Source of the DNA: an uncultured Candidatus Saccharibacteria bacterium
GTDB taxonomy: Bacteria > Patescibacteriota > Minisyncoccia > Minisyncoccales > Staskawiczbacteraceae
Assembly (NCBI GenBank): GCA_964599285.1
Contig: CAZREI010000004.1
Location: forward strand, 1 to 58,994
DNA length: 58,994 nt
Direction of reading: 5' to 3'
Shown: piece by piece, positions 55,699 through 56,639 of the stretch
Layout of the letters: the number at the start of each line of letters is the position of its first letter
Position numbering within the stretch: position 1 is the stretch's first letter
The notes under the pieces: generated by a model
Told to the model about the DNA's origin: nothing
The model's input: the letters and a program-made list of their open reading frames with translations, nothing else
The model's database searches: none
Made by a program: the position numbers and the translations under genes

Positions 55699-55726
55699 TT
55701 GACAGCGTTTTTATTTCTGGTAGACT
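55699..55726 (+). promoter_or_regulatory. Sigma70-type promoter
   Basis: TTGACA-16 nt-TAGACT. Confidence 0.6.
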
Positions 55727-55732
55727 CAAATC

Positions 55733-56110
55733 CAAGATGGTATCGCATCTGCCAATTGTTTTCAGAAAGCTATGTATAAAAATAAATAGTTTTCTGAAGA
55801 CGGTTGGCAGGGCATTGCGTGTTGTTCCCCGCACATACCATGGCAGCTTGTGTGGGCTGAATTCGGAGGCGGGTCTCAATCGTGGGACCGTTACAGAGCA
55901 AGTCTCTAAGAACCCTCCAAAGGGAAGGAGGTTCTGGGAAAAGTTTTCCCTAACTTTCCAGAGGTGGAATCCTCTTGAGAGCTGCTCATGGCGTGGCACA
56001 TTGCCACTTCAACCCTTCAGTGATTTAGCTCCCCTGCCAACCGTCTTTCCGTTCTTTTTTCTCATCTTTATCTTCGCCTAGGGCCACAGCGATTGTTGTG
56101 GCCTTTCCCT
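55733..56110 (+). ncRNA. Candidate highly structured ncRNA, unassigned family
   Basis: 16 bp long-range stem 55797-55812/56032-56047, nested stems, alternative 25 bp 5' hairpin with G-U pairs; flanked by promoter and terminator. Confidence 0.55.
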
Positions 56111-56293
56111 TTTTAGTAAATTTGATTTTCATTCATTTGACGGAGTCATTTTTTTTTGCTAAAATTTTAAACACGTGGGCCCATAGTTCATCTTGCCCTG
56201 TTAAATAATTTTGATTAAAAATCAAAATTAAAATCATATGGATTTTATTTAACAGGGTGAAGTAGAACGCCATTTGCACATATTTCTTTTGGT

Positions 56294-56368
56294 GGGCGCG
56301 TAGTTCAGTGGTGGAACGCCATACTGATAATATGGAGGTCGAAGGTCCGATTCCTTCCGCGCCCACCA
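56294..56368 (+). tRNA. tRNA-Ile(GAT)
   Basis: GGGCGCG/CGCGCCC acceptor, CCATA-CT-GAT-AA-TATGG anticodon arm, CCA encoded; T loop TCCGATT is atypical. Confidence 0.9.
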
Positions 56369-56398
56369 AAAGAAATATGGAGGCTCTGCTCAATTATC

Positions 56399-56567
56399 TT
56401 GAATTACGAAATGCCATTTAAAAAGGCGAGTTTCGGGTCTTTTCTCCAAATTTTGGCTATAAATTCGCTATAATTTTTTCACGTAGCTGTTGGCTACGAT
56501 AAAAAATTCTATCAAATTTCTATCTCAAAATTTGAAGAAAATACCTCGAAAGCATTTCGTAATTCAA
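56399..56567. mobile_element. 169 bp MITE-like element, copy 2
   Basis: TIR TTGAATTACGAAATGC/GCATTTCGTAATTCAA; interior near-identical to copy 1. Confidence 0.7.
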
Positions 56568-56598
56568 GGTCAATTAGAAAATAAATAAAAACAGACTC

Positions 56599-56639
56599 AT
56601 AATATGGAGGCAGAAGGTCCGATTCCTTCTGGGCCCACA
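56599..56639 (+). pseudogene. Degenerate 3' half of tRNA-Ile (att-like remnant)
   Basis: ATAATATGGAGGCAGAAGGTCCGATTCCTTCTGGGCCCACA versus tRNA ATAATATGGAGGTCGAAGGTCCGATTCCTTCCGCGCCCACC. Confidence 0.7.

Follow-up and report, generated by a model that had tools for sequence, protein, structure and literature searches.

A transcription unit of about 380 nt in the genome of an uncultured member of the candidate phyla radiation (CPR) is likely to be a boxB/boxA module of the type found in ribosomal RNA (rRNA) operon (rrn) leaders. It lies upstream of a tRNA-Ile(GAU) gene in a stretch of 58,994 nt, here called the window, which comprises positions 1 to 58,994 of contig CAZREI010000004.1 (assembly GCA_964599285.1, Candidatus Saccharibacteria, GTDB family Staskawiczbacteraceae) and is contig C4 of a host genome of 859 kb that is 97.6% complete. 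With moderate confidence, the locus as a whole is read as an rrn-type boxB/boxA leader module that was orphaned by fragmentation of the rRNA operon and that acts in cis as a Nus-loading leader. The module was probably left in front of its present neighbor when the operon broke up; tRNA-Ile(GAU) is the classical 16S-23S spacer tRNA. NusB-S10 (NusE) load onto RNA polymerase at boxA, a site in the RNA. Antitermination by boxA and Nus factors is textbook knowledge for the rRNA operons of Escherichia coli and for phage lambda, and to our knowledge little is known of it in the CPR, where rRNA genes are unlinked.

The element is encoded on the + strand, and positions are given in whole-window coordinates. 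The unit, which appears to be this lineage's form of the rRNA-operon leader/spacer signal, and the genes and signals that follow it are made up of these parts:

55699-55726, + strand: promoter P1, TTGACA-16-TAGACT, 10/12 matches, TG before the -10 box (promoter scan)
55749-55810, + strand: 5' hairpin, boxB-like, with arm A at 55749-55773 (A2 basal, A1 apical), loop at 55774-55785 and arm B at 55786-55810 (B1 apical, B2 basal)
55797-55812, + strand: B2, the shared strand, partner of either A2 (55749-55762) or C
55813-56031, + strand: variable structured core (expansion domain)
55854-55862/56023-56031, + strand: core helix supported by the closest homologue
55894-55903/55981-55990, + strand: core helix supported by the closest homologue
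55960-55964/55971-55975, + strand: core hairpin Z, supported by the closest homologue
55993-55998/56002-56007, + strand: core hairpin W, supported by the closest homologue
55872-55877/55884-55889, 55909-55918/55927-55935 and 55936-55941/55945-55950, + strand: core helices that are window-specific or only predicted
56032-56047, + strand: C, the 3' strand of the clamp helix B2:C and a Watson-Crick copy of A2
56050-56061, + strand: boxA-like element, starting 3 nt after C, with 8-nt core CGUUCUUU (56050-57) and 11-mer GUUCUUUUUUC
56080-56115, + strand: intrinsic terminator with an 11-bp stem (stem-loop 56080-56105) followed by the interrupted U tract UCCCUUUUU (terminator scan)
56137-56165, + strand: promoter P2 of the tRNA-Ile unit, TTGACG-17-TAAAAT, TG before the -10 box (scan)
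56294-56368, + strand: tRNA-Ile(GAU), the conserved downstream partner gene

Several of these parts had been named in a first-pass annotation made from the sequence alone. Its promoter and terminator were both recovered by the scans, and its view of the unit as a noncoding structured RNA of the + strand is upheld. P1 is a strong promoter of the sigma-70 type, and transcription from it would start near 55733. The + strand folds at -151.7 kcal/mol, compared with -111.3 +/- 5.4 for shuffled sequences (z -7.43), while z for the - strand is -4.94. Read directly, AAGACGGTTGGCAGGG (55797-55812) is the exact reverse complement of CCCTGCCAACCGTCTT (56032-56047) over 16 nt, as annotated. The 5' hairpin has 25 bp, of which 21 are Watson-Crick and four are G-U, with zero mismatches. 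The annotation had also described it with G-U pairs as the sole deviations, and it is present in the minimum free energy (MFE) structure; the only correction is that its partner arm ends at 55810 and not at 55812. The annotation overlooked the boxA right after C and the constant link to tRNA-Ile(GAU) and 16S, and it is this motif and this linkage that place the element among the rRNA-operon leader and spacer signals.

The single-stranded motif after C closely resembles bacterial boxA. The published boxA consensus is GYTCTTTAANA (PMC5725501), and NusB-NusE read 8 nt, UGCUCUUU in E. coli (PMC3177189). Across the family the motif has the consensus GYUCUUUWACAAUUU, and at most of the 35 loci compared it begins 2-10 nt downstream of C. 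A match to GYTCTTTAANA with at most two mismatches occurs within 45 nt of C in 19 of the 35, compared with 9% of background windows, and at locus L065 the match is perfect. In a closer relative represented by metagenome contig OBEQ010693212 (OBEQ, L022), TGCTCTTTTACAATTTAT is identical at 17 of 18 positions to TGCTCTTTAACAATTTAT of the E. coli rrn leader. Each of 5426 E. coli genomes contains the leader string, with a median of 7 occurrences that lie about 100 nt ahead of 16S; there the boxB stem ends 2 nt before boxA. Besides the boxA match, the family shares with rrn-type leaders a helix 5' of boxA and downstream of a promoter, and an association with rRNA or spacer tRNA.

The host encodes the protein expected to recognize such a motif. 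nusB is found at C14:8429-8866, and Pfam validated the match (PF01029, 3e-35). The gene immediately after nusB carries the RNase III signature ERLEFLGD (rnc, C14:~9154), and thus the boxA loading factor and the enzyme that cuts leader-trailer helices are encoded by neighboring genes on C14. Another boxA-like string, CGCTCTTTTACAATT, is found at C2:73915-73930 in an intergenic stretch of 60 nt; about 25 nt further on follows the ATG of an open reading frame (ORF; 73936-74376) of 147 aa. It may mark a Nus-regulated gene of the suhB kind, or it may be a chance occurrence.

The module is widespread in the family and is linked to tRNA-Ile(GAU) even when the tRNA plays no part in the search. The sample comprised 79 genomes of 16 genera from one GTDB family of the CPR. 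BLAST with the whole RNA in 60 relatives aligned the hairpin alone, in two genomes of the genus, and exact-pattern scans of genome and metagenome collections found only G015, G016 and the new contig OBEQ010693212. Searches with nhmmer anchored on tRNA-Ile added copies in G013, G014 (two, in tandem), G017, G024 and G012. A covariance model of the hairpin alone (R1), in which the tRNA was not used, matched 37 of the 79 genomes and 13 of the 16 genera. For these loci, tRNA-Ile(GAU) is the next downstream tRNA in 21 of 35, 19 of them on the same strand, and homologues usually lie 130-250 nt upstream of it. The upstream neighbor depends on lineage: one genus has gatA at this place, and three genomes of the window's genus have a rhodanese/TrhO-like gene. 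It follows that the unit is passed on together with the tRNA and does not move as a cassette.

The order of parts is also conserved. It runs from a TTGACA-type promoter through the 5' hairpin, the core, C, the single-stranded motif and zero to two small hairpins to the terminator. A TTGACA-type promoter is found at the same place in 23 of 35 loci (60-70 nt upstream were scanned), a terminator-like hairpin follows boxA in 27 of 35, and a P2 promoter lies between terminator and tRNA in 15 loci. In other copies the module is linked to 16S itself. Among relatives with an assembled 16S, it stands directly 3' of that gene, after the 3' strand of the 27-bp 16S leader-trailer helix, in G012, G022, G002, G082 (where there are two tandem copies) and G008 (where it has a promoter of its own). 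The 16S-linked module runs into tRNAs with no terminator in G022 and G002. G008 is a complete genome from the window's genus in which the rRNA genes are unlinked, with 16S and 23S-5S 6.7 kb apart and with a separate promoter for 23S. The G008 23S gene also contains a group I intron (L108).

Two to three complete promoter-module-terminator units are arrayed in tandem in G003 (L059), G014 (L026), G082 (L067), G088 (L079) and G008 (L084), and every unit has a B2/C pair of its own that covaries. Some array units have no 5' hairpin, and some continue into odd tRNA-like genes, labeled tRNA-??? by aragorn.

Covariation supports both of the pairings in which B2 can take part. Among 10 homologues of the 5' hairpin, 93.7% of the cells are paired and 14 of 23 pairs are double-changed, a level reached in none of 500 shuffles. 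For B2:C in 33 loci, 14 of 16 pairs are double-changed, with 73 double-change cells compared with 23.5 +/- 5.1 in shuffled data (0/500); this count comes from mini-constructs of B2 and its best partner and is somewhat favored by the choice of partner, although slid-register and shuffle controls separate clearly from it. A generic search for A/B/C triples with G-U pairs allowed was too noisy in AT-rich DNA. The competition between A2:B2 and B2:C that the first-pass annotation had noticed is thus maintained by covariation in many genomes.

The two pairings differ in strength. Compared with C, of which it is a copy, A2 carries C-to-U and A-to-G transitions that replace Watson-Crick pairs with B2 by G-U pairs. 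When 35 loci are taken together, G-U pairs make up 84 of 428 pairs in A2:B2 (19.6%) and 35 of 500 in B2:C (7%), and at 33 of these loci B2:C is more stable than A2:B2 (means -24.5 vs -15.8 kcal/mol). G-U pairs exist on the + strand alone, and R1 scores the + strand of the window far higher than the - strand (73.9 vs 43.9 bits); it is therefore the RNA that is under selection. An ordered co-transcriptional strand exchange, in which the hairpin would form first and C would then take B2, agrees with this pattern. The alternative pairings stay at least 33 nt away from the terminator and overlap neither a terminator nor a ribosome-binding site.

The core, on the other hand, is the least conserved part of the element. 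Its length varies from 40 to 310 nt across the family, and it is nearly absent (about 40-60 nt) in G070, G005 and G068. MAFFT alignments of whole cores were too poor for RNAalifold to give a family-wide core structure, and the core is unalignable between genera. All of the local hairpins proposed in the annotation, GGTCTC/GGGACC, AGAACCCTCC/GGAGGTTCT, GGGAAA/TTTCCC, AGAGG/CCTCT and GTGGCA/TGCCAC, are present in the sequence. Relatives show covariation for AGAGG/CCTCT and GTGGCA/TGCCAC; within the genus, the two local hairpins at 55960-55975 and 55993-56007 covary. The proposed CCATGGCAGC/GCTGCTCATGG helix is not preserved in the closest homologue; in the consensus with that homologue its place is taken by GCUGCUCAUG paired with CAGAGCAAGU (55894-55903/55981-55990), with one compensatory change.

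From this anatomy a mechanism can be inferred in which Nus factors bind, the strands exchange in vivo and the terminator is read through. The full hairpin A:B would form first as the RNA emerges. Once made, C would displace the G-U-rich A2 from B2 through its perfect Watson-Crick match. Closure of B2:C would shut the insert and set boxA at the foot of a composite helix of about 30 bp (A1:B1 stacked on B2:C), a geometry like that of boxB-boxA in E. coli. NusB-S10, together with NusG and NusA, would then modify the polymerase, which could pass the imperfect terminator with its interrupted U tract into tRNA-Ile. An unmodified polymerase would stop and leave the leader RNA of about 380 nt. As its functional output, the unit could give either read-through into tRNA-Ile that depends on Nus factors, or a boxA RNA that is set free.

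The closest known counterpart is the boxB-boxA(-boxC) antitermination signal of E. coli rrn leaders and spacers, the loading site of rrnTAC. Both have a strong promoter upstream and stable-RNA genes adjacent, a helix that ends 2-10 nt before a single-stranded boxA, a nearly identical boxA (GYUCUUUWACAAUUU in the family, UGCUCUUUAACAAUUU in E. coli) and a NusB protein. In contrast to E. coli, where the hairpin has about 7 bp, that of the family has 25-30 bp, and a second helix, in competition with the hairpin base, clamps a structured insert of 40-310 nt ahead of boxA. The family unit also has its own terminator, which is followed by a separately promoted tRNA-Ile and not by rRNA, and it is tandem in some genomes.

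Other systems share parts of this design. Lambda nutR-tR1 and nutL-tL1 also have a promoter-proximal boxA and hairpin before a terminator, which is the same logic as P1, module, terminator and gene, and only a modified polymerase passes the terminator. In lambda, however, boxA precedes boxB and phage N is required on boxB, while read-through at the present locus is only proposed; we know of no N-like partner for this element. The leader-trailer helices of pre-16S and pre-23S resemble B2:C in that a long-range helix joins the flanks of a structured RNA, but B2:C encloses a small variable insert and not rRNA, and boxA lies 3' of the trailer-like strand and not 5' of the leader strand. Among pre-rRNA leaders with transient helices, the accessory ones vary and can be dispensed with (Warner et al. 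2023, PMC10250234). The put RNAs of phage HK022 and the EAR element of Bacillus are structured leader RNAs that act on polymerase so that it passes terminators; neither uses boxA, and put works without Nus factors. The present element has no sequence or structural similarity to either, and no Rfam match.

Several observations weigh against reading the locus as a cis-acting Nus-loading leader. The boxA of the window keeps its 8-nt core, but the 11-mer has three mismatches, all in the 3' half, so that the window copy is a weaker boxA member. In most loci a good intrinsic terminator and a separate promoter stand between boxA and tRNA-Ile, and thus tRNA-Ile does not depend on P1. Antitermination of the rrn type is established for Rho-dependent termination and much less for intrinsic terminators. 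Uninterrupted transcription into a stable-RNA gene, as is typical of rrn leaders, is seen only for the 16S-linked copies of G022 and G002. The 16S-linked modules of G008 and G012 end at a terminator that no stable-RNA gene precedes, and no boxA-hairpin module precedes the unlinked 23S of G008. Finally, the MFE structure of the window RNA keeps the full A:B hairpin and not B2:C.

The terminator gives some weight to another reading, in which the terminated transcript of about 380 nt is itself the product. As a trans-acting small RNA, it would display boxA on a stable scaffold and serve as a decoy or sensor for NusB-S10 or for another partner, which would couple the supply of S10 to stable-RNA transcription. 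This is a tentative possibility, to which the own strong promoter and own terminator of most loci lend support, as do the terminator-only modules downstream of 16S in G008 and G012 and the complete tandem units with covarying B2/C in G003, G014, G082 and G088. Cleavage of the leader-trailer helix would also free a module cotranscribed with 16S as a discrete RNA. However, the core, which would have to give such an RNA its specificity, is highly variable and can be almost lost; the element is patchy within the genus (11 of 26 genomes by R1); and the modules of G022 and G002 continue into tRNAs with no terminator. A bolder proposal, which must be considered rather doubtful, takes A2 as a G-U-weakened placeholder for C and the exchange as a timer. 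It would combine this timer with a boxA exposed on an abundant terminated transcript that buffers or senses free NusB-S10 in trans and so ties ribosomal-protein supply to stable-RNA synthesis in a lineage with a fragmented rRNA operon; in its other form the unit would be a checkpoint like lambda nut, at which only Nus-modified polymerase passes the intrinsic terminator into the tRNA.

Decay is an improbable explanation of the locus. A functionless relic of an old rRNA operon spacer could account for the degenerate 3' half of the window boxA and for the absence of the module from many genomes of the genus, including complete G008 at its tRNA-Ile locus. Such a relic would not be expected to show compensatory changes that preserve both helices across 13 genera, nor a promoter, boxA core and terminator that are kept, nor a strand-specific G-U asymmetry indicating selection on the RNA. 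The annotation had proposed a conformational switch, and the part of this idea that stands is the conservation of two exclusive folds. A ligand- or signal-responsive switch, with the core as an aptamer that chooses between A2:B2 and B2:C, would also suit the very stable fold. It is very unlikely all the same, because there is no conserved pocket in a core that is unalignable between genera and reducible in the family to about 40 nt, and because neither pairing touches the terminator or any ribosome-binding site; no Rfam riboswitch matches either. Neither a free-standing riboswitch-like sensor nor control of the terminator is supported.

The least credible reading is a type I toxin-like mRNA or small-protein gene, which the annotation had kept as an alternative. 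The 114-aa ORF (55737-56081) exists, and its C-terminus is hydrophobic; the 5' hairpin and long-range closure also resemble the folding logic of hok mRNA. However, neither this ORF nor the antisense 109-aa ORF has a Pfam match, and hydrophobicity is the expected translation of U-rich RNA. ORF length, frame and position are not conserved across the 35 homologous loci, no start codon is shared, and the longest + strand ORF in the closest homologue has 40 aa. A small ORF in the U-rich tail fares no better: the conserved motif starts with TTG, CTG, TCG or CCG, so that it is not a start codon, and the stop positions vary. The family comparison refutes a coding function.

The element does not belong to any known RNA family that was searched for. 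At gathering thresholds no Rfam family matched the window, and at E<=10 the region gave spurious miRNA-hairpin matches alone. This agrees with the annotation, which had seen no hallmarks of RNase P, tmRNA, signal recognition particle (SRP) or group I RNAs and had asked for an Infernal search. Whole-genome model searches place RNase P RNA at C11:21143-21569 and tmRNA at C19:8440-8793, and the 6S RNA model matches neither the locus nor any other part of the genome. The small and large SRP RNA models also match neither locus nor genome, and the idea of a divergent SRP RNA was dropped since Ffh and FtsY are absent; without Ffh, no SRP RNA is expected.

Four further candidate explanations for parts of the element were rejected. 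A T-box-like tRNA sensor was considered because of UGGAA-type loops at Z and AG-rich stretches, but neither the UGGN nor the specifier features show conservation, and no Rfam T-box matches. Pairing of the tail with arm A1 does not covary, as the OBEQ tail has ACAAUUU and its A1 lacks AAAUUGU. B2/C can also be matched to the anticodon stem of tRNA-Ile, but this complementarity shows no covariation with the tRNA in the window, L063 or L066. An origin of the A2/C DNA repeats from a mobile element or miniature inverted-repeat transposable element does not account for strand-specific transitions that preserve G-U pairs, and the flanks are in vertical synteny, with gatA or trhO upstream.

In this family a leader-type signal has become its own promoter-to-terminator unit, duplicated in tandem in places and supplied with a built-in competitor strand whose G-U content is tuned so that it pairs more weakly than the final long-range helix. 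It offers a natural test case for encoded co-transcriptional strand displacement, and for whether Nus complexes gate intrinsic terminators or are titrated by RNA. The locus corrects an annotation trap as well, since an RNA beside a tRNA that is large, very stable and covarying need be neither a new ribozyme nor a new riboswitch.

Members of this whole CPR family appear to have no SRP pathway (Ffh, FtsY and SRP RNA). The SRP RNA model RF00169 matches none of the 79 genomes, and RF01854 has no match in the host genome. Of the 79 genomes, a single one (G007, which has 3% contamination) contains the Ffh M domain (PF02978), and the other 78 lack it. Searching all ORFs of at least 60 aa of the host genome with E. 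coli Ffh revealed neither Ffh nor FtsY; the query was validated by the positive control in G007 (3e-91). A literature search found no paper tying Parcubacteria to SRP loss. The apparent absence of SRP, together with a 16S that has no anti-Shine-Dalgarno sequence, may interest more people than the RNA itself.

The 16S 3' ends of G012, G008, G022 and G002 (L083-L086) read ...GCUCGUGGAUCAUUUUUUU and are missing the CCUCC anti-Shine-Dalgarno, which fits the lack of Shine-Dalgarno sequences noted in the first-pass annotation. About 250-350 nt ahead of 16S, every 16S leader in L083, L085, L086 and L087 contains a GC-rich hairpin that runs into U7 (AUAUCCGCG...CGCGGGUGUUUUUUUCA). This hairpin has the shape of a canonical intrinsic terminator and is weakly detected by R1.

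The tRNA-Ile gene of the window is surrounded by partial copies of itself. Within 56178-56400, the intact tRNA-Ile(GAU) (56294-56368) is preceded by a degenerate tRNA-Ile 5' half whose D-loop holds a 70-nt hairpin insert. This pseudo-tRNA 5' half is followed by TTGCACA and by a leader that pairs with the tRNA 3' trailer (ATATTTCTTTTGGT...ACCAAAAGAAATAT), and a 3' tRNA-Ile fragment lies at 56592-56638. Stacked tRNA-Ile 5' halves precede tRNA-Ile in at least seven relatives (L002, L034, L039, L041, L046, L071 and L081). They may be scars of repeated insertion or a functional tRNA-like leader. The AT-rich hairpin of about 70 nt (CCYGTTAAATAATTTTGA...TTTATTTAACRGGGT) occupies 56192-56265 in the D-loop of the pseudo-tRNA, and it is also found at L022:10385-10455, immediately upstream of the module in the closest relative, suggesting that it is a small mobile or promoter-bearing element. 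In one genus a SAM riboswitch is located just downstream of tRNA-Ile (L062, L071, L074 and L076). Elsewhere in the host genome, at C1:2060-2304 and C6:17551-17623, there are two adjacent tRNA-like genes to which aragorn assigns 2-nt 'anticodons', and a tRNA-Ile(UAU).

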